DNA of 64,000 bases from a virus. Its lineage: Duplodnaviria > Heunggongvirae > Uroviricota > Caudoviricetes. The stretch is taken from positions 1 to 64,000 of the IMG/VR virus record IMGVR_UViG_2681813421_000002; one strand, given 5' to 3'. The number at the start of each line of letters is the position of its first letter. Position 1 is the stretch's first letter. The notes below the pieces were generated by a model. The model had not been told where the DNA came from. It was given only the letters and a program-made list of their open reading frames with translations, and ran no database searches. Made by a program: the position numbers and the translations under genes. This document shows positions 20,187-53,499 of this stretch, piece after piece.

Positions 20187-22477
20187 TTCATTATTGCAAT
20201 TATATCGTTAGCAACTACACGTGTTGACGCCTTGCAGGAAACCGACCGTCTGGCTGCCATATGATGTACTTTAAACCCGTTTCCTTCATATAGTTCACGG
20301 ATGTTTGGTGCACCACTATTTGTAATCACTACCTTAGCGCCGCGCTGGTGGGCTTCCACCAATAGAGATACCAGCCGTTTCTGTTCGTCGAAACGGAAGC
20401 TATTTCCTGAATAACTGGTAAACCCTTCTGTATCCGGCAGCGGTTCATACGGCGGATCGCAAAAAATCACATCTCCTTCACCAGCCGCCTCGATGACGCC
20501 AGCAAAGTCACCTGATACAAAGGACGTGTTTTTGAGTACGTCATCAGCCAAAAATGCCTCCATCTCTGCATGTGGGAAGTAGGGCGCTTTGTATTTGCCA
20601 TACCCCACGTTGAACTCGCCATTTTGGTTGTACCGCGTTACGCCATTAAAACAGTGCCGATTAAGGTACAAAAAGGCGGCAGCATGATGTAGCTGGTCAT
20701 ACTTTCCTCTGTTAAATGCCTCACGCACTTCGAGGTAAGCGTCAGCGTTGTTGTAATTTTGGAAAAAACTATATGACAGCGTGACGAGCGAATGTCCTTC
20801 TCGCTGCAATGTCTGATAGAAGTTAATCAGGTCACCGTTAATATCATTAAGCAGGTTGTGGCGAAATCCTGCATTCGTAAATACAGAACCGCCACCAACG
20901 AACGGTTCTATTAACCGCTTGCCGTGTGGTAGATGCTCAAGCACTGTAGGCAACTCTGAGAATTTACCGCCTACCCATTTGAAGATCGGACGCTCATATT
21001 CATCCGGAGTCCGGAGTTTTCTTGTGTAGGTAATGGTATTTATTGTTTTTGGCTGTTTAGCTTCCACAGTCGCAAGAATGCGACACCCAATCCATTGCAT
21101 AACAGGAACTGCCATGCTGTTGCCAATCGCTTTGTAACGCGGCCCGTCAGCAGCGAGCATCGCGGCCTCTTCTTCGCTTAAATCTGGATAGTGATTGCGA
21201 AGGTATGCCAGTTCATCTGAGGAAATTGTTTTACGCTTTTCCGTAGGGATCAACGTATGCCCATCAGGAAAACCTTGCAGCCTTTCACATTCGACAGGGG
21301 TAAGACGGCGGACAGCTACTTCTGCGTTTCTTACTTCATAGCAAACGGCTGTTGGATTTTGAGCCATTAGAGATGGTGAAGTATTCTTAGTTGCAGCATG
21401 TTGTGTACCGCTCATACGCTCAGGAAAAGCTAATGTAACAAGATGCTCATGGCTTTCTTGCTCACGCGCCCGCAATGTACCATGCCCCTCTGACCAAAAA
21501 CCTGCTCCTGTGCTGCTAAAAACGGCAAGGTCAGTGGCATCTTTAAAGTCTCTTGCCTTTACTGTCGATGCGGTTTCATCGTCAATATATTCCCCAAATG
21601 CCGCCATCCTGAAAGCGTTTACGGCTTTCGTCGATTTCATACCGGGGGGCATGTCAGCGTGTAGGCATGGATTTAGGCTTTCGCCACTGATTGCAGCGCC
21701 ATTTGCAATAATGGCGGAAGCGATTTCCTTCTTTTTTCGGCTCGGCGCAATATTCCGGCGCACGCCTTCGAACTCAAAAAGTATCGTTGCGGGATCGAGG
21801 TCTGTTCGAGCACTTGCGACAACAAACACGCGTCGGCGTCGTTGCGCCACTCCGAAGTATTGGGCATCAAGGATTCTCCAGGCCACTTTTCGCTGCGGTC
21901 CATAAATACAACCACACTGCGGCCACTTTGGAGCATGGCAACTGGTTTTGACATCCCACCGCCAGAACGCGTTACTTTTTCGCGATTCAGGTCGAGCACC
22001 TGGTTCGAATGGCGCATCTTCTCCAGCCAATCCGGCAAGGAAACATCCGAAGGCGTTATCTGCCGATGACAAGACTCCTGGGACATTTTCCCAGACGATA
22101 ACGGCTGGTTTGAGAAATGACTCAGCCCGTTTGTCGTCAATTGCATTTGCAAGCTCCACATACTTTAAAGTTAGCGCGCCACGCTCATCATCAAGCCCAC
22201 CACGTAATCCAGCGATACTGAATGCCTGACAAGGTGTTCCCCCGACGAGCACATCAGGGGATTCGATTTCCCCAGCCAGGACTTTTTTGGCAAGTTTTGT
22301 CATATCGCCAAGGTTGGCGACATGGGGCCAGCGGTGCGCAAGAACGGCAGATGGAAAAGGCTCGATTTCAGCAAACCACGCCGGACGCATACCCAACGGT
22401 TCCCAGGCAATGCTCGCTGCTTCAATTCCACTGCAAACTGAACCATATCTAAGGTTAACGTTCTGCTTCACCACCAA
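20183..22477 (-). CDS. dmt: Bifunctional DNA methyltransferase: N-terminal C5-cytosine MTase fused to C-terminal Dam-like N6-adenine MTase
   Basis: N-terminal motifs SGIE/FxGxG-like, PCQ ([11 protein letters not shown]), ENV (ENVPG), [16 protein letters not shown]; C-terminal FVGGGS and DPPY; 764 aa. Confidence 0.85.
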
Positions 22478-23360
22478 CGGCCTCCACTAGCGAAGTGAAC
22501 ATCGCGGATAATTCAGCAGTAAACAGGATAAAGTCAGCGTCAAATCGTTGCGCAACATCCTCTCGATCAATATCGTCGTTCTGGTCGTACAATTCGTCGC
22601 TGAACGACAAAGCCTTGATACTCATATCGTCATTCAGTCTGAAAAATGCACGGTCTTGCCAGTTAACCGCAACTGTGGTTGCAACCTTACCAGCTTCTAT
22701 ATGACTCATGATCTCGTCGGATAGCAGGTCCACTTTTTTGCAGCGGACCGCGCCGCCATCATCAAGCAATGCTTTTAAGGTCGCTTCCTCACCGGCACGG
22801 AAACCGTTCGGGAAGCCATTTTTAATCCAGCCAGTGATGGTCAGTTCTAATGGGTCTTTCGGAGAGAAGGGGACAACGGGCAAGCTGCCAAGCGATTTCC
22901 GTAACAAAGCCAGCTGATCCTCTGCTTTTTTAGCACTGCTGGCCTCGACAAAAACCAGATGATTGCTTCGGTCTATCAGGATTTTAGCTACTGATTTTCT
23001 CGTGAAAGCGCGAGGAAGAAGAGAGTGAAGCACTTCATCCTTCAGCGAATCTTTTTCGGTCTTCTTCAGCTTTCTGTCTTGCTCTTCTTCAAGTTTCAGG
23101 ATTTTTTTCTGTAACTCTTCTTTGAGTACTTGAGAAGGTAGGATTTTTTCCTCTCGTTTATGCTGCATCAGAAGAAAACCCTGGTATTCATGGGTGAGGT
23201 TGTCGCCAAGAACGGGGGTCCAACCAGCTTTAGCCATATCCTGAGAACCGCATGGGGTAAACACAAACTTGCTAAGGGCTGCATTTACTTCTGCAGTATC
23301 CCAGCTAACTTCGCGTGAAAGACGATAGATGAAGATATTTTTGAAAGCGACTGATCTCAT
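22455..23360 (-). CDS. rdgC: Recombination-associated protein RdgC homologue (P1 hrdC-like)
   Basis: Colinear with E. coli RdgC as recalled ([69 protein letters not shown]). Confidence 0.9.
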
Positions 23361-46634: not shown

Positions 46635-46706
46635 GCTGCAAAGTGCTGGTGCTTTATGCCTGTGAAGTTTATAATTGTGTACACATAACGAGTACACGAG
46701 GTGTTT

Positions 46707-46928
46707 ATGCAATCCATTAACTTCCGTACCGCGCGTGGCAACCTTTCTGAAGTGCTCAACAATGTTGAAGCCGGGGAAGAGGTTGAAATCACCCGCAGAG
46801 GCCGTGAGCCAGCAGTAATTGTCAGCAAGGCTACTTTTGAAGCCTACAAAAAAGCGGCGCTGGATGCCGAATTTGCATCCCTGTTTGACACCCTGGACTC
46901 CACCAACAAGGAACTGGTTAACCGATAA
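46707..46928 (+). CDS. phd: Phd antitoxin
   Basis: Product from ATG 46707 matches P1 Phd as recalled ([39 protein letters not shown]...). Confidence 0.95.
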
Positions 46929-47308
46929 TGAGGCATATATCACCGGAAGAACTTATTGCGCTTCATGATGCGAATATAAGCCGCTACGGCGGCCTGCCGG
47001 GAATGTCAGATCCGGGCAGGGCAGAGGCCATTATCGGGAGAGTTCAGGCCAGAGTTGCCTACGAAGAGATCACCGACCTTTTCGAAGTCTCCGCCACCTA
47101 CCTGGTGGCTACGGCGAGAGGGCATATATTCAATGATGCCAATAAGCGTACCGCGCTAAACAGTGCGCTGCTATTTCTACGCCGTAACGGTATACAGGTA
47201 TATGATGATCCCGTGCTGGTGGAGCTTGCAGTGGGGGCTGCAACTGGTGAAATCCCCGTATCTTCAGTAGCGAAAAAACTACGTGAACTATATGGTTCCA
47301 ATATTTGA
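46928..47308 (+). CDS. doc: Doc toxin (Fic-fold kinase)
   Basis: Matches P1 Doc as recalled, including Fic motif HIFNDANKR; start overlaps phd stop (TAATG). Confidence 0.95.
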
Positions 47309-47343
47309 AAAGAAGCCCGCTCAACCAGGCGGGCTTCTTACTA

Positions 47344-48438
47344 TCACTCAATGATTTTTTCTGCTGTCAGCCAGCTAATTTCTTGCCTGTCTTTCGGCGG
47401 TTTTAGCATGTGGGCGTATTCAGCGACATTCTCCCACGGAATTGTTTTTGCCCACTCAACGATAGCATTGTGATCTGCAGTGAAGAGTGGAATGGTGTGC
47501 GATTTCAACCATTCTAATGTCGTGACGCCATGTTTTTTGGCGTGGTGCTGCGCATGATGCCGGGCTATCACTCGTAATGGTATTGTCCATTCACTACCAT
47601 CAGGCATCGAAAAGCGCATTGTCTTCGGCATATCTGATTCAAGAACAGCCTCCCTAATACCAGGGAACTCACCAAGAATCATACGACGATAGTCATCACT
47701 ATTTCGCCCGCCATACCTTTCGGCAAAATGATCAAGATATTCTTGGGTAATAAATGGTGAATCCTCCGCACTCAGCTTAATGGCTTTATATACACCACTC
47801 GGATTATCTTCAGCTAAAGCACGTCCATGATGTGAATCATAAAAAAAGCCTATTTCCTCTGGTGACGGAATTGAAGTGAGCAATATGCGTGAATCACCAC
47901 TAGTCATGCTTGCCCACACAATGCTGTATGCCCGATCGCTGATATGTGCGGAATCCACAATAATGAATAAAAGATGGTCGGCGTAGTGACCTGCAATGCT
48001 ATCTTCATAGTTAAGGCGGAAGTTACAAAAGCACATTCCCCAAAATTCATTGAACATCAGACCGCTATCACCGACCTTAAAATACTCAATGATAAAAGGT
48101 TGTTTTTTCAGCAATGCCTCCCAACATTGCCACACATATGCAACAATTCCTCTTTTGCAAACATTTGATTTTGGATAAACAATTACTGTCCGGGAATCAG
48201 GATACATAATCGTATAAAGGGTACTAATAACAGCAAGCACTTGCGGTCGTCCGATCCCATACGGAGTGGTGACAGTAGCTTTTGCATTATTGGGCTGTAT
48301 AGCTTCAACAATTTGTTGTTGCTGGTGGCTTAAATCAATATCAAACAATTCTTTTGCTGCCAGTACCCAATTGTCTTTATATTTCTCCACCAGCGACAGC
48401 CAGCGCGGATCTTTATAAATATTGCTCTTAGTCGCCAT
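47344..48438 (-). CDS. Terminase large-subunit (PacB) ATPase-domain paralogue with degenerate Walker motifs, no nuclease domain
   Basis: About 40 percent identical by eye to PacB N-terminal 270 aa (SHQQQQI, FYDSHH, DNP, SPF, EYGGR); Walker A GHGTGKS replaced by PYGIGRP; Walker B LILDEAS replaced by IIVDSAH; C-terminal 110 aa unrelated; ATG 48438 with AAGGAAG RBS. Confidence 0.6.
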   Translation of the reverse strand: MATKSNIYKDPRWLSLVEKYKDNWVLAAKELFDIDLSHQQQQIVEAIQPNNAKATVTTPYGIGRPQVLAVISTLYTIMYPDSRTVIVYPKSNVCKRGIVAYVWQCWEALLKKQPFIIEYFKVGDSGLMFNEFWGMCFCNFRLNYEDSIAGHYADHLLFIIVDSAHISDRAYSIVWASMTSGDSRILLTSIPSPEEIGFFYDSHHGRALAEDNPSGVYKAIKLSAEDSPFITQEYLDHFAERYGGRNSDDYRRMILGEFPGIREAVLESDMPKTMRFSMPDGSEWTIPLRVIARHHAQHHAKKHGVTTLEWLKSHTIPLFTADHNAIVEWAKTIPWENVAEYAHMLKPPKDRQEISWLTAEKIIE

Positions 48439-49195
48439 CTGCCACTTCCTTAACTTCTTCTTTGGCCTGTTCTGCAATCGCCGCACGGCATTTCGCCCTG
48501 GCTGTAGCGATTGCTTCAGCTCGCACATCGTCTGGAATCGTTGACGTGATATACATATCCAGTTCTTCGGCACGGAATACTGTTTGGTCCAGATATTCGC
48601 GTAGCATCCAGGTAAATTCGAAATCACACGCGATAATCTCTGCGCCACCTTCTGCACCATTTGGGAAATGAATAAATGCCTGTTTAGCCAAACCGATAAC
48701 ACGACATGCGGTTGCCAAAACAGCGACAACCAGGTTTACATTTTCACACGCTACGGGCTGGTTAACGCCGGAGATTACTCCATTTAACTGTCGGTTATAT
48801 GGAAGGTAGTTTGAGATGCGTTCTACGCGCCATGTGCCAGTCAGGCTGCCATTTTTAAATATAATTGGTGTAACGGATAGCCCAAGCTCGCGTATAAGTC
48901 GTTGCGCTATAGCAGGATCATTAAACAGGTCTAATGCTACACATTCGAAAGACTGCGCAAGGGCAAACAGTTCTTCCAGAGAGTAGTCTTTGCCCCTGGC
49001 GGTGATGTAACGACGAACGCCGCTGTCTGCATCACTCCATATAGCTACGCCATGCTCTTCATTCAGCTCTTCATTAAAGCCGAGATACGTCATGATAGTG
49101 CGTTCAATCGTGTCAAACGGCAGTGACATGTCGGCGTTAACAGCCACCAGCAGGCCATTACGCAAGCGGTATTGAATTGTTTTAGTGCTTTCCAT
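48428..49195 (-). CDS. Hypothetical protein
   Basis: 255-aa ORF in operator-controlled operon. Confidence 0.45.
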   Translation of the reverse strand: MESTKTIQYRLRNGLLVAVNADMSLPFDTIERTIMTYLGFNEELNEEHGVAIWSDADSGVRRYITARGKDYSLEELFALAQSFECVALDLFNDPAIAQRLIRELGLSVTPIIFKNGSLTGTWRVERISNYLPYNRQLNGVISGVNQPVACENVNLVVAVLATACRVIGLAKQAFIHFPNGAEGGAEIIACDFEFTWMLREYLDQTVFRAEELDMYITSTIPDDVRAEAIATARAKCRAAIAEQAKEEVKEVADGD

Positions 49196-49201
49196 GTCAA
49201 A

Positions 49202-49642
49202 TCACTCCACAACAAACCAGTCACAGGCCAGCAGGTCGCCAACTGAAGGCACCCACGGAACAACTACACCTTGTGCATTTTTTAAGGCGAAATAAGCACC
49301 ATACGGAACGAGGTCGCCGGGGAAATATCCCTTAATGGCTTCCATTCGTGCCGGGTACTGTCCTTCAGGAACCAGCCAGCAGAATTGGTTTTCGCCGTTC
49401 CACCCGCGTCGAGCAACTTTCTTGCCTTCCTTCAGCCACATCAGCGCGTCTGAAAAGTCGGCTGCTTCAAGGTCGATTTCTTCTTGCTGGGTGGTGATGC
49501 CACCAGCAGAAATAGTTACGCTCCCGGTAAGATTAATCATCACGCCGTTGTCATCCGTAATGATGACCGTGGTTCCATTTTTTTTGTGAGCTTTGTATTT
49601 GGGACGGAACTTAAAAAGCTCTTTCGTTGCCATGTTATTCAT
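49202..49642 (-). CDS. DUF2829-like protein (Tad2-like anti-Thoeris sponge family candidate) with N-terminal extension
   Basis: C-terminal 90 aa FSDALMWLKEGKKVARRGWNG...GDLLACDWFVV matches recalled DUF2829 signature. Confidence 0.45.
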   Translation of the reverse strand: MNNMATKELFKFRPKYKAHKKNGTTVIITDDNGVMINLTGSVTISAGGITTQQEEIDLEAADFSDALMWLKEGKKVARRGWNGENQFCWLVPEGQYPARMEAIKGYFPGDLVPYGAYFALKNAQGVVVPWVPSVGDLLACDWFVVE

Positions 49643-49656
49643 AGTCTTTTCTCTGC

Positions 49657-50151
49657 TTATAACTTTTCGTACTGAAGCGGTGAACGCTTAATTTCAAAGT
49701 GGCCTTCCGATGTGCTACCAAAGCCACCAGCACCACGCTCCGTTTCGTTGAGTTCCTCAACCTCGACTAGTGAGACTTGTTCAACACGCTCAAAAATTCC
49801 TTGCATGACAGCCATTCCAGGCTTGAGACAAACGCCTTCCCCGCCGGGATCAGTAATCAGTTTTGCCATGATTTCGCCGCGATAATCGGAGTCGATAATT
49901 CCTACGCAGTTAGCCAGGCGAGTATGTTTTTTGCAGCCCAATCCTGATCGCGGATAGAGTTTCAGACACCAGCCGGGCGGGATCTCCATAGCCAGTCCGG
50001 TATACACCCACCAGCTTGAGGAAATTGCACCATTGCTATCGACGCATGGTTTTATTTCAACAGCCTCAAAATCCATCGCCGCCGATCCGGAGGTGGCATA
50101 AGCTGGAAGTTTTGCTGCCGGATGTAGGCGTTTCACTTTTACGTAAATCAT
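49657..50151 (-). CDS. dut: dUTP diphosphatase
   Basis: Trimeric dUTPase motifs (GLGCKKH..., GIIDSDYRGE, GERGAGGFGSTS). Confidence 0.8.
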   Translation of the reverse strand: MIYVKVKRLHPAAKLPAYATSGSAAMDFEAVEIKPCVDSNGAISSSWWVYTGLAMEIPPGWCLKLYPRSGLGCKKHTRLANCVGIIDSDYRGEIMAKLITDPGGEGVCLKPGMAVMQGIFERVEQVSLVEVEELNETERGAGGFGSTSEGHFEIKRSPLQYEKL

Positions 50152-50624
50152 TGTTTTTTAGCTCTCTGCGTGAAGGTGTAAACCCGACGTTTGATATGTG
50201 GAACGGTAGGAACAGGAAGACAGGAACTTTCAATAACTCCTTGCTCATCCAGCGATCGCACCGCCCGCAAGAACTGCGACGTGTCGCCGCCAAACTGGCG
50301 GGCATAGGTGCTGCCGTTATGAAGTATTTGAGCTATTACCCGAGTTTTTGTCTGGCTGTCACGATATGCGAATAGCCGCACGGCCTCTTCTGGCGCAATC
50401 GCTAACTGATAGCCTTTCCCGGCACGGTGTCGAATGAATCCATGCGCCAGTAGGTTTTTGAGTTCGTTACGAGTGCGAACAGATCCGTAACCCAGGAAGT
50501 GTGGATTGATAACGACTGGCTTAAACCATTCCGTAGGTGCTTTAGCTAATAGAGCTAACAGCTTCCCGGATAATTCTGGATAGGAAGACGGGTAACAATT
50601 CAGAGATGGGTAATAAGTTTTCAC
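50148..50624 (-). CDS. Hypothetical protein
   Basis: 158-aa ORF, overlaps dut start by 4 nt. Confidence 0.45.
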   Translation of the reverse strand: MKTYYPSLNCYPSSYPELSGKLLALLAKAPTEWFKPVVINPHFLGYGSVRTRNELKNLLAHGFIRHRAGKGYQLAIAPEEAVRLFAYRDSQTKTRVIAQILHNGSTYARQFGGDTSQFLRAVRSLDEQGVIESSCLPVPTVPHIKRRVYTFTQRAKKQ

Positions 50625-50965
50625 CGACGCCCCCTTGCAGGATATCGACCTGCATTAGTATCCGGTGCAATAAAGCCGGTAGTGGGGCGAGTGAAAGCGA
50701 GATTAATCTTCTCGACCATAGTGCGATAATTTTCCTGATAGTGGGCCAGGAGTTTTTCGGCGGCAATGATGGTTACTTTCCGGACGTAGCTTTCTGCTTC
50801 CTCCAGATTTCGCCAGTTTTTTTCGAGGGTAAACACAGGGACGGCCTCAAGCCCGGTCATGATGCCGAACACAACGACAGCATGACTGTTCTTAACACCA
50901 GCGGCGAAGGTTACGGTGTAACCATCCACCTTGAAGCGTCTTGATTCCGTGATTTGACTCTGCAA
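50621..50965 (-). CDS. Hypothetical protein, first gene of operon
   Basis: 114-aa ORF directly downstream of operator motif at 51023. Confidence 0.45.
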   Translation of the reverse strand: MQSQITESRRFKVDGYTVTFAAGVKNSHAVVVFGIMTGLEAVPVFTLEKNWRNLEEAESYVRKVTIIAAEKLLAHYQENYRTMVEKINLAFTRPTTGFIAPDTNAGRYPARGRR

Positions 50966-51022
50966 AGCACCCTCCTAAATAGGCGAGGGTACTTTACAGC
51001 AAAGATGTTAATCTAAAAAGAT

Positions 51023-51038
51023 GTGTTAGAAATTTAAT
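51023..51038 (-). promoter_or_regulatory. Operator-like motif (AAATTTCTAACACA on minus strand)
   Basis: TCTAACA core between cre 3' end and operon 50965-47344. Confidence 0.5.
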
Positions 51039-52067
51039 TTATAAATCCATCAGGCGGCTATTAGCCCCCACAGACACGCCGCCACGGCGCAGATACCGCA
51101 TAAGTGTTTCCGGTTTCTTCCAGGTTCCTTCCTGCATAATCTCCACCATAGAGACCTGCTTTTCAGCCATATCGATAGCGGCCCCGACGCGTGCACTATG
51201 CCCGGTCCACGTCCGGTATCTTCCTTTGTTTGGCGTAGCATCTCCTTTATTCAGCAACACCCAGGCGTCGCTGAATATTTTCTCCATTGCAGGTGCAGTA
51301 AGGGGCGTTATCGTGATCCTGGCCTTATTGCTACGGTGTATCGGCGGGAACAGCACTGCGTCAGGATGTTCGCGAAGCCCGGAAACATCCAGCCAGTCAT
51401 TCAGCACAGCGGTAGTGCGACGGGAAAGCACCTTATCAAGCCCGGCGGCGGTCGTTATTGTCTTCGTGTGTGAAATATGTAGCGTGACAGTGTCACCTGT
51501 TTGGTCCAGATCTCCTACACGAATACGCGAGATTTCCGACATACGCATCAGCGTATTGTATGCAACAAAGAGAAAAGCCCGGTTGCGCAGGTCCACCAGC
51601 CGTTCAGACCTGGACAACAGGACGTCGAGCAGTTTCAGATCGTCCCACCGCAGCGGTATAGCCTGGCCTGTTCGTTCGCCTTTTTCAGTTGCCGCTTCGC
51701 GCCGGATGCGCCGCATAGCCAGAGAAACACTTTTATCATCCGAAAGTGGTGGAAGGCCACAATGCGAAAGCAGCATGTTCAGCATGGCGTAGTGCTTATC
51801 AATGGTGGTCGAAGCCAGATCGGCATCATGCAGCTGAAGAAAATACTCGCGGGCCATTTCTGGTGAGATCGGAAACCAGGCAAGCTGGCGAGCGTGACAC
51901 CAGCGCGCCCAGGAATGAAACACCAAACGGAGGTCGCGCAGAGTATTCGGCGCATAAGCTCCCTGGTCATTCATGAACCGCATAAAGTTTTCTGCGGCTT
52001 CCTGGTACTCTTTGCCAATGTTGCGCAGAAAACCACCGGAACTGCCAGAGATAATTAATTCACCCAT
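51039..52067 (-). CDS. cre: Cre-like tyrosine site-specific recombinase
   Basis: 342 aa colinear with P1 Cre as recalled (VSLAMRRIRRE, IRNRAFLFVAYNTLMRMSEISRIRVGD, GHSARVGAAIDMA, catalytic Tyr region LMRYLRR). Confidence 0.9.
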   Translation of the reverse strand: MGELIISGSSGGFLRNIGKEYQEAAENFMRFMNDQGAYAPNTLRDLRLVFHSWARWCHARQLAWFPISPEMAREYFLQLHDADLASTTIDKHYAMLNMLLSHCGLPPLSDDKSVSLAMRRIRREAATEKGERTGQAIPLRWDDLKLLDVLLSRSERLVDLRNRAFLFVAYNTLMRMSEISRIRVGDLDQTGDTVTLHISHTKTITTAAGLDKVLSRRTTAVLNDWLDVSGLREHPDAVLFPPIHRSNKARITITPLTAPAMEKIFSDAWVLLNKGDATPNKGRYRTWTGHSARVGAAIDMAEKQVSMVEIMQEGTWKKPETLMRYLRRGGVSVGANSRLMDL

Positions 52068-52218
52068 GAAACTATTTGACCTCTATATACAGATGACGCT
52101 ACGCGAAAAATATAAAAATGACAGGGTAGCTATAAGTTAATTTTCAAAATACAAGCCTTTGATTCGAGGCACGTATTTTCAGTGATGTCAACACTGTTCA
52201 TCTACACATGATTATAGC

Positions 52219-52252
52219 CTAACTTTAAATAATGCCAATTATTTAAAGTTAT
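52219..52252. other. lox-like recombination site CTAACTTTAAATA-ATGCCAAT-TATTTAAAGTTAT (13-8-13)
   Basis: 12/13 inverted-repeat arms flanking 8-bp asymmetric spacer, about 150 bp upstream of cre start; outer arms share AACTT with loxP. Confidence 0.7.
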
Positions 52253-52433
52253 AAAATGCCGATTTTTTTTAATCCATCATAGATTGATGATGACCAGTAA
52301 CACGTTGCCTTCATGGTCTTTAATTTGCGAAGTGTGGTTTCTACGGTTGGTTTTCTAAAATTGATGACAAAAAATCACAGTTCGATCCTTTACTCACCCT
52401 GTTATTCGACATAAATTTGTCATAGTAATTTTA

Positions 52434-52461: not shown

Positions 52462-53499
52462 ATGAGTAAGAAGTCGATCGAGAAAGAGTACAAACGGTTC
52501 CTGCAAACCGCTGAACGGTGGAAAGAGCTGGTGGTCGCAAACTCTGTTTTCCATGATACCAGTTATGCTGGCGAGGAATTCCGCCATGTTGCATTAACGC
52601 ATGACCAAAACATATTAGAAGAAGCTGAAAAATGTCTTGCTGAATGGAAAGCCTTCGTTGACATGTGCCGCGATGCCGACGGCAAAGCGTCGAACATTGT
52701 TGAGTCTGTATATTCTCCGATCCCATTCATCATTGAGGACACCAATCAAAGCACGCATGTCGTTGTGCAAAGCGCTACAACAACACGTACATTTACACGT
52801 GAACAATTGCTAAAAAAATACGACAAAATCATAAAGAAAAGCCTGAAAAATAGGGTTTTTTCTCAAATCGTAGGTGCTCTTGAAGAAGAACAGCGCTTCT
52901 TTGAAGCTGAGCCTGAAGGCGAGATCTACCGGGCGCGTAAAGAGGCATATACAGATGTTGTGCTGACAACAAACATCGAAGGCAGCAATGCCCTTTCTCG
53001 CTTTAGAGTTGGCGCACATGGCGCATTGGTTTTCGCAAGACTACCGAAGACAACGATCCCCGTTGTCAATAATGTTGGTGAACGCCGGAGCATTACAATT
53101 TATTCTGGCGTCGAATCGGTACCATGCAGCCTTCTCGGCGATTTTAACTTATATCGTGTTCGTGACCTGGAAAAACACCAGCCAAGCTACGTTGCGAAGT
53201 CGTACATCTTAAGGAACATCGATATTCGCAATGAAAGCCTTAAGCAGAAATCCGCTAAGATGCTGGAGGATGCCGATCCGGCTATTCGCCATATCATTGA
53301 ACGTAAGATACGTACATCACGTGAAGCAATGGCAAGGTTGGATAAAATGGATCTGGAATTGTTAGACGTAATGATGGCCTCTGGAGACGACCTGACCGGC
53401 ATTAAACTGAATGAAGCTCGTAAAAAATACGGCAAAGCAATCGAAGAACGTTACGGATACACATTCCCCCAAACGCAGTACGCCGCGAAGCTCTGGTAA
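52462..53499 (+). CDS. Hypothetical protein at the P1 c1 position (candidate immunity/regulatory protein)
   Basis: 345-aa ORF between lox-cre and pacB, convergent with pacB, operator motif in leader; no recognised similarity to P1 C1. Confidence 0.45.
   Translation: MSKKSIEKEYKRFLQTAERWKELVVANSVFHDTSYAGEEFRHVALTHDQNILEEAEKCLAEWKAFVDMCRDADGKASNIVESVYSPIPFIIEDTNQSTHVVVQSATTTRTFTREQLLKKYDKIIKKSLKNRVFSQIVGALEEEQRFFEAEPEGEIYRARKEAYTDVVLTTNIEGSNALSRFRVGAHGALVFARLPKTTIPVVNNVGERRSITIYSGVESVPCSLLGDFNLYRVRDLEKHQPSYVAKSYILRNIDIRNESLKQKSAKMLEDADPAIRHIIERKIRTSREAMARLDKMDLELLDVMMASGDDLTGIKLNEARKKYGKAIEERYGYTFPQTQYAAKLW

Follow-up and report, generated by a model that had tools for sequence, protein, structure and literature searches.

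Introduction

Depending on the homologue, proteins of the Tad2 family block CBASS, Pycsar and Thoeris systems of types I, II and IV. They are built as homotetramers of two V-shaped dimers with inter-protomer pockets, and the Tad2 domain of 80-100 aa is the entire protein in most characterised members (Hadary et al. 2025, bioRxiv 10.1101/2025.08.24.671296). The founding member, SPO1 Tad2 (Gp34.65; PDB 8SME/8SMF/8SMG), is specific for type I Thoeris (gcADPR) and inactive against type II; its ligand is contacted by W25, N26, W73 and D79, and helix alpha-1 forms its tetramer interface (Yirmiya et al.). HgmTad2, or AcrIIA7 (PDB 8KBI-8KBM, 8WJC), is a protein of 151 aa that is active despite a long N-terminal extension. 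Its ligand contacts are W21, N22, G23, W87, S90 and D93, and their mutation abolishes binding (Li et al.). MoTad2 (ModTad2), of 88 aa, comes from a Myroides odoratus prophage (PDB 9EIB with His-ADPR, 8V3E apo); it sequesters His-ADPR, takes cUMP/cCMP in a second, intra-dimer site and does not inhibit type I Thoeris.

A larger set of homologues was screened by Hadary et al. 2025 (bioRxiv 10.1101/2025.08.24.671296). One of them, Tad2_68 (87 aa, from IMG/VR UViG_3300014659_000001), is a validated inhibitor of type II Thoeris (Table S2 of that preprint). It was also positive in the plaque assay against type I Thoeris, with the entry "n, N/A, y", a pattern that the T4 Acb2 control shows as well for the CBASS it inhibits, and it was negative against type IV Thoeris, both CBASS and both Pycsar systems. 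Several homologues, Tad2_73 and Tad2_78 among them, inhibited nothing in the same screen although their GWNG and W...D motifs are intact, and conserved motifs are therefore no guarantee of activity. Among phage-plasmids, a 2025 preprint that relied on DefenseFinder reported "Tad2 AcrIIA7 (anti-Thoeris)" in 93% of D6-like and 56% of P1-like members.

Here we describe a Tad2-like gene in a window (the whole stretch of 64,000 nucleotides that was analysed) which is a close relative of the phage-plasmid Escherichia phage D6, a P1-like plasmid prophage, and compare it with these systems. An earlier note, made from the letters of this stretch, had drawn attention to the gene.

Results

Gene and genome setting

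The Tad2-like gene starts with ATG and encodes 146 aa plus stop, the product including ALMWLKEGKKVARRGWNG...GDLLACDWFVVE (Table 1). D6 and the window share 97.8% nt identity over 3.7 kb around the gene, whose D6 counterpart is orf114 / H7U15_gp013, and copies with 100% nt identity lie on 90-98 kb E. coli plasmids. Plasmids of the D6 phage-plasmid type occur in about 4% of complete E. coli genomes. The gene belongs to a tightly packed same-strand run composed of orf117, orf116, dut, the Tad2-like gene, isaA and an ORF of 364 aa, behind which a terminator-like hairpin lies at 47315-47330. No NCBIfam model matched the Tad2-like protein or its neighbours in the NCBIfam search.

Table 1. Coordinates of the Tad2-like gene, its parts and the surrounding features in the window.
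Feature	Position	Strand	Basis or remark
Tad2-like gene	49202..49642	-	ORF list; Pfam PF11195; equivalent of D6 orf114
Tad2 (DUF2829) domain, aa 62-146	49205..49459	-	Pfam envelope 62-145; AF2; Foldseek; predicted ligand contacts W81, N82, G83, W130, S133, D136
Beta-rich linker, aa 23-61, GTTVIITDDNGVMINLTGSVTISAGGITTQQEEIDLEAA	49460..49576	-	Alignments A1, A4; common to 225-aa alleles
N-terminal stub, aa 1-22, MNNMATKELFKFRPKYKAHKKN	49577..49642	-	DNA alignment with full-length L005 allele and D6
364-aa ORF closing the gene run	47344..48438	-	Absent from D6 reference, present in L005
isaA homologue, 255 aa, start 6 nt past the Tad2-like stop	48428..49195	-	Conserved downstream partner in P1-like phages
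dUTPase gene (dut), 4-nt overlap with orf116, end 14 nt before the Tad2-like start	49657..50151	-	Pfam PF00692, E = 1.7e-14; PHROG 135
orf116 homologue, 158 aa, 4-nt overlap with orf117	50148..50624	-	PHROG 6669, function unknown
orf117 homologue, 114 aa, TTG start after AGGAGG, first gene past the motif	50621..50965	-	PHROG 1968, function unknown
Operator-like motif AAATTTCTAACACAT, candidate D6-type C1 operator	51021..51035	-	Motif searches
dre (Dre, Cre-like tyrosine recombinase)	51039..52067	-	Pfam PF00589; D6 annotation
rox (52220-52251) and overlapping promoter	52211..52251	-	D6 annotation of rox; promoter scan
C1-type prophage repressor gene, diverged	52462..53499	+	D6 orf1 annotation; PF27008 on L005 orthologue; weak NCBIfam C1 match

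The protein carries a Tad2 domain with conserved ligand contacts

The 146-aa protein matched Pfam PF11195, named "Thoeris anti-defense 2-like domain" and earlier DUF2829, with E = 5.9e-23 and a score of 81.6 bits (curated cut-off 25), well outside what chance would give; the match runs over residues 62-145 and covers profile positions 2-73 of 73. A sequence search of every PDB chain returned Tad2 proteins exclusively, namely 9EIB (ModTad2, 8e-21), 8V3E, 8KBI (HgmTad2/AcrIIA7), 8SME (SPO1 Tad2) and 8WJD (SptTad2). The AlphaFold2 model, a monomer built on 80 homologues, reached pLDDT 88-96 over aa 61-146 and showed an N-terminal helix, an antiparallel beta-sheet and a short C-terminal helix that can be superimposed on solved Tad2 proteins. 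All 24 significant Foldseek matches of this model in the PDB were solved Tad2 structures (including 9EIB, 8V3E, 8KBJ and 8SMF), the best being ModTad2 with His-ADPR (E = 4e-10, TM 0.78-0.89 normalised to the target). By residue mapping, W81, N82, G83, W130, S133 and D136 align with the ligand contacts of SPO1 Tad2 and HgmTad2, and all of them are kept. The PF11195 match, the restriction of the Foldseek matches to Tad2 structures and the conserved contact residues together indicate that the protein almost certainly belongs to the Tad2 family. The earlier note had placed the gene in DUF2829/Tad2 by the family signature and had proposed an HMM search and a comparison with Tad2 structures as checks; both searches found the family and the pocket residues are present, which bears out the assignment.

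Comparison with tested Tad2 proteins

The closest tested homologue is Tad2_68, with 68% identity over 82 ungapped residues (window aa 61-142). The insertion loop, YPARMEA.KG.F..D.VPY.AYFALKNAQG.VVPW.PS.GD, is common to both proteins, as are the pocket residues, among them an I/V-G pair ahead of the conserved Asp. They differ in setting and build: Tad2_68, from a metagenomic virus, consists of the domain alone (87 aa), whereas the window protein has a 60-aa stub and linker in front of the domain and belongs to an E. coli phage-plasmid. ModTad2/MoTad2 is 46% identical to the window protein. SPO1 Tad2 shares the fold and the four contacts (W25/N26/W73/D79 correspond to W81/N82/W130/D136), but identity is just 36%, its insertion is different and shorter, and it has Q-T where the window protein has V-G.

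HgmTad2 resembles the window protein in its gcADPR pocket and in having a natural long N-terminal extension. It differs in a 41-residue insertion that forms a cyclic-dinucleotide pocket, which is not conserved in the window protein: the HgmTad2 contacts R31, D34, L36, K46, S47, F70 and N85 are replaced by V91, G94, Y96, Y106, F107, Y114 and V128, and the beta2-beta5 insertion is about 16 residues shorter. A cyclic-dinucleotide pocket of the HgmTad2, SptTad2 or SaTad2 type was rejected on these residues and the shorter insertion.

The two residues preceding the conserved Asp were compared among inhibitors of the two Thoeris types. They are V134-G135 in the window protein, I-G in Tad2_68 and V-S in MoTad2, and Q-T or Q-A in the type I inhibitors compared (SPO1, HgmTad2, Tad2_70, 71, 82 and 83). 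The type II inhibitors (the set being ModTad2, TmoTad2, CcaTad2, Tad2_68 and Tad2_76) carry I-G, V-S or S-S in those compared, a small sample in which Tad2_68 also hits type I.

An in-frame deletion shortened the N-terminal part

Close homologues in P1/D6-like plasmids of E. coli, Shigella and Salmonella are mostly 216-233 aa long. These full-length orthologues (among them P0001, J46_0048 of SJ46 and that of Ro157c2YLVW) have the same N-terminal 20 aa, linker and Tad2 domain as the window protein, and P0001 is 98% identical to it over aa 21-146. In the alignments, the long alleles and the window agree in their first 20 residues, MNNMATKELFKF.PKYKAHK, and again from KNGTTVIITDDNG to the end; between these two parts the long alleles have 79 extra residues. 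Full-length orthologues on D6-like plasmids stand in the same synteny as in the window (dre-orf117-orf116-dut-tad2-isaA), and so does the 225-aa gene of the sister plasmid L005.

DNA alignment with the L005 allele showed that the window and D6 carry an identical in-frame deletion of 237 nt (79 codons), located between two A-runs. Its junction lies between codons 20 and 21, CACAAA|AAAAAT, at about 49583/49582. In the full-length allele, the borders of the missing segment read CACAAA|AACGTT (left) and TCC|AAAAATGG (right), and the junction in the window reads CACAAAAAAAATGG. We regard this as a deletion rather than an insertion, because the long form is widespread (SJ46, Ro157c2YLVW, Klebsiella phage SopranoGao and many plasmids) and the short one is limited to D6 and to 9 of the 213 complete E. 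coli genomes in which the gene is present.

What was removed is a domain of about 80 aa, modelled in the long form as an OB-like beta-barrel with pLDDT 81-93, for which there was no Pfam match; full-length orthologues keep it and the window/D6 allele is without it. Left behind are the stub, of which aa 1-22 had an AF2 pLDDT below 55 and are predicted to be disordered, and the linker of aa 23-61, for which AF2 gave three strands (pLDDT 64-72) in the short protein and a low-confidence prediction in the long one. Judged from these alignments, the "extension" is a 20-22 aa stub plus linker left by deletion of the OB-like N-terminal domain, and not an added module. The N-terminal extension that the earlier note had seen is thus present, at about 60 rather than 55 aa, and the long-allele alignments identify it as a deletion remnant. 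These first 60 residues, left over from a two-domain ancestor, are probably dispensable.

The short allele is intact in D6, the window and nine complete E. coli plasmids at 96.8-100% identity, free of frameshift or stop, and its plasmid sources are humans, chicken meat, pig and horse. Among the 213 complete E. coli genomes with a match, this short form is in the minority, with about 9. Codon differences between the window and D6 comprise eight synonymous and two non-synonymous changes. An in-frame dUTPase::Tad2 fusion, P0028 (241 aa, 15 member sequences), keeps the Tad2 domain. Given the 8:2 synonymous excess, the intact short allele in nine plasmids and the retention of Tad2 in frame by rearranged relatives, the sequence comparisons make the short gene look maintained. 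In P0028 a deletion brought ...ERGAGG, from the dUTPase, next to ...GGITTQQEE, from the Tad2 linker; the fusion is a second, independent rearrangement.

Loop alleles and domain partners among relatives

The insertion loop has at least three allelic forms among P1/D6-like plasmids (alignment A4). One is the window type, PEGQYPARMEAIKGYFPGD, another reads PDKQGASRLTPIKHAANGDLEINFDSP, and a further one is short, LAGSVNLHGIH, with the contact motif GWNG changed to GWKG or EWKG; loop variants are present in the relatives P0010, P0019 and P0029 and in P0032, P0037 and P0058. The loop alleles suggest a diversification of ligand specificity.

The partners of the Tad2 domain vary as well. P0089 has the OB-like domain C-terminal to Tad2, and in P0120 a gp49/Sf6-gp66-like domain, to which the OB-like domain may be related, takes the place of the latter on the N-terminal side. 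A crAss001_48-related domain follows Tad2 in P0036 (PF21825, E = 2.7e-17) and, according to precomputed Pfam annotation, in P0103. It appears rather unlikely, though conceivable, that the P1/D6-family Tad2 proteins are modular, fast-evolving two-domain anti-defence proteins in which the OB-like domain adds a second activity and the loop alleles encode different signal specificities. If they were, the D6/window allele would be a natural 'minimal' derivative for which the Tad2 module alone is enough.

Operon and candidate operator

Gene order around the Tad2-like gene was compared with that of related phages. In SJ46 (P1-like) the orthologue sits between ssb and isaA, and the P1 reference genome (NC_005856, compared at 21051-22531) has no Tad2-like gene; its ssb is followed directly by the isaA ORF, which has an unrelated N-terminal extension of about 56 aa. 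In RCS47 the Tad2-like gene is broken into two pieces that lie about 10 kb from each other, and inverted-repeat features are annotated where the breaks occur. At the other end of the run, the D6 reference has a pdcA-like gene in place of the 364-aa ORF, which is present in L005 and L006. This ORF belongs to PHROG 5902 (function unknown), and part of it weakly resembles terminase large subunits (phrog_2, E = 1e-8). Between humD and the 364-aa ORF, at 46701-47308 on the + strand, there is a phd/doc toxin-antitoxin pair; L005 is without the pair at this place, and the operon end is thus a variable region.

The earlier note had placed the gene in an operator-controlled early operon. Searches of the whole window with the P1 C1-operator consensus, ATTGCTCTAATAAATTT, gave no match with up to three mismatches, and a P1-type operator was rejected on this ground. 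A different motif is repeated: its core, TTCTAACA (extended, TTAGTTTTCTAACAYA), occurs 11 times in the window against 2.3 expected. Positions of TTAGTTTTCTAACAYA are 12757, 23383/23394 (an inverted pair), 34846, 35494, 40065, 51033, 52351, 52443, 56877, 61492, 61648, 62897 and 63940, the copies at 52351 and 52443 being just upstream of the C1-type repressor gene. The motif, TTTTCTAACA, adjoins c1, lpa, ref, icd/ant and hrdC and also occurs upstream of the orf117 operon. In D6 and the window, two copies lie by c1, one lies about 88 nt upstream of lpa and others beside ref, icd/ant, simB and pdcB, and before hrdC the motif forms an inverted pair. This distribution mirrors that of the C1 operators of P1. 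By this analogy the repeated motif probably serves the diverged D6 C1 repressor as its operator, and this C1-type repressor is the presumed binder of TTTTCTAACA. Aligned by hand, the motif agrees with the 17-bp P1 operator consensus at only about 11 positions. A Lpa-dependent late promoter was also considered for the motif and rejected, the P1 late -22 box being AAGTGACTT and the motif lying upstream of lpa itself, c1, ref and icd/ant and not of structural gene blocks.

The copy ahead of the operon, AAATTTCTAACACAT, has one mismatch to the core and lies between dre (stop at 51039) and orf117 (start at 50965), which are 73 nt apart; the same site is found in D6 at 89957. Weak -35-like and -10-like hexamers flank it, a layout that resembles the P1 Oref between its -35 and -10 boxes. 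P1 itself offers a parallel, since there the annotated C1-controlled operator Ossb drives ssb, directly ahead of isaA. An operator-controlled early operon is plausible by this analogy, with a repeated motif upstream and packed genes behind it; of what the earlier note had claimed, the operon stands as a plausible reading, and the operator would be a D6-specific motif in place of the P1 C1 operator. We infer that the Tad2-like gene would be transcribed early after infection or induction, within the orf117-orf116-dut-tad2-isaA operon and under the control of the D6 C1-type repressor.

Further upstream, a strong sigma-70-like promoter, TTGGCA-16-TATAAT (52238 to 52211), overlaps rox and reads into dre and the operon, and the terminator scan predicted no terminator between dre and orf117. 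Low-level read-through from the dre promoter may therefore be possible in the lysogen. The rox site consists of a perfect 14-nt inverted repeat with a 4-nt spacer. As the promoter overlaps rox, Dre bound there could autoregulate dre and the downstream operon.

Discussion

The comparison with solved and tested Tad2 proteins suggests how the window protein may act. By analogy with the solved structures, the C-terminal domain (aa 61-146) would form a tetramer with inter-protomer pockets, to the lining of which one chain contributes W81/N82/G83 and another W130/S133/D136. These pockets would sequester an ADP-ribose-derived alarm molecule from the TIR protein of Thoeris, which would leave the Thoeris effector inactive and let the phage-plasmid replicate. 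On this analogy we consider it probable that the protein is a Thoeris signal sponge. The most likely ligand would be His-ADPR, the signal of type II Thoeris, possibly together with 3'cADPR of type I; that His-ADPR is the main ligand is roughly an even call. Where the earlier note spoke simply of the immune signalling nucleotide, the nearest tested homologue, Tad2_68, points to His-ADPR and perhaps 3'cADPR. Assignment to type II is a best estimate, made from overall similarity and from a residue signature taken from a small sample.

Other roles are known or have been proposed within the family, and they were weighed against that of a Thoeris signal sponge. A sponge for a different signal, be it cUMP/cCMP of Pycsar, N7-cADPR of type IV Thoeris or the cyclic dinucleotides of CBASS, would fit a family that as a whole inhibits CBASS, Pycsar and Thoeris I, II and IV, and V91, P92, G94, Y96, F107 and Y114 are shared with MoTad2 at the intra-dimer interface, its cUMP/cCMP site. 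Tad2_68 is closer to the window protein, at 68%, and has the same interface residues, yet it had no effect on Bacillus or E. coli Pycsar, on either CBASS or on type IV Thoeris. For the dinucleotides in particular, R31, D34, L36, K46, S47 and N85 of HgmTad2 are not conserved, and the long insertion that builds the pocket is absent, which together make a different signal improbable. Inhibition of Cas9 in the manner of an AcrIIA7-type anti-CRISPR is scarcely credible. The idea goes back to the first link of DUF2829 with AcrIIA7 and lives on in labels, 8KBI being deposited as 'Inhibitor of Type II CRISPR-Cas system' and DefenseFinder naming the family 'Tad2 AcrIIA7'; the window protein is indeed homologous to 8KBI (E = 3.7e-11). 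As far as is known, type II CRISPR-Cas is not among the usual defences of E. coli, in which D6-like plasmids live. Attempts to reproduce Cas9 inhibition, with HgmTad2/AcrIIA7 and with further Tad2 proteins, failed in vitro and in vivo (Li et al.), the same view is taken by Yirmiya et al., and an anti-CRISPR role was rejected on these published negative data.

It may also be asked whether the short allele still works at all. The deletion of 79 codons could have crippled a two-domain protein and left an inactive or unstable product that is carried along in the operon. The lost domain is confidently folded (pLDDT 81-93) and kept by most P1/D6-like plasmids, the remaining 22 N-terminal residues are predicted to be disordered, and the short allele is in the minority, at about 9 of 213. 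The 60-aa N-terminal tail joins directly before helix alpha-1, the helix on which tetramer contacts depend in SPO1 Tad2, and the removed domain, kept by most relatives, may have contributed to function. On the other side, the deletion keeps the frame exactly and spares the Tad2 domain in full, no frameshift or stop has entered the short allele in D6, the window or the nine plasmids, and synonymous changes exceed non-synonymous ones by eight to two relative to D6. With these points taken together, we judge a decaying remnant unlikely and keep to a maintained gene for a probable Thoeris signal sponge.

The assignment of the gene to the Tad2 family is correct yet already known at annotation level, since RefSeq labels D6 orf114 "DUF2829 domain-containing protein" and gives the DUF2829 annotation in D6 and every E. 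coli plasmid match, the Pfam name is Tad2-like, and the DefenseFinder results have been reported in the preprint. Small additions made here are the nearest experimentally tested homologue (Tad2_68), the deletion origin of the N-terminal extension with the two-domain architecture of the ancestral protein, the record of at least three insertion-loop alleles among P1/D6-like plasmids, and a candidate D6 operator motif. The current understanding of Tad2 is unchanged by them; they add a well-known phage group to the range of a known family. Alleles of 146 aa and 225 aa form a natural pair that bears on the contribution of the extra N-terminal domain. Should the protein be active, D6-type phage-plasmids would come equipped to inhibit TIR-based (Thoeris) immunity, which would help to explain their establishment and persistence in diverse clinical and animal E. 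coli lineages.
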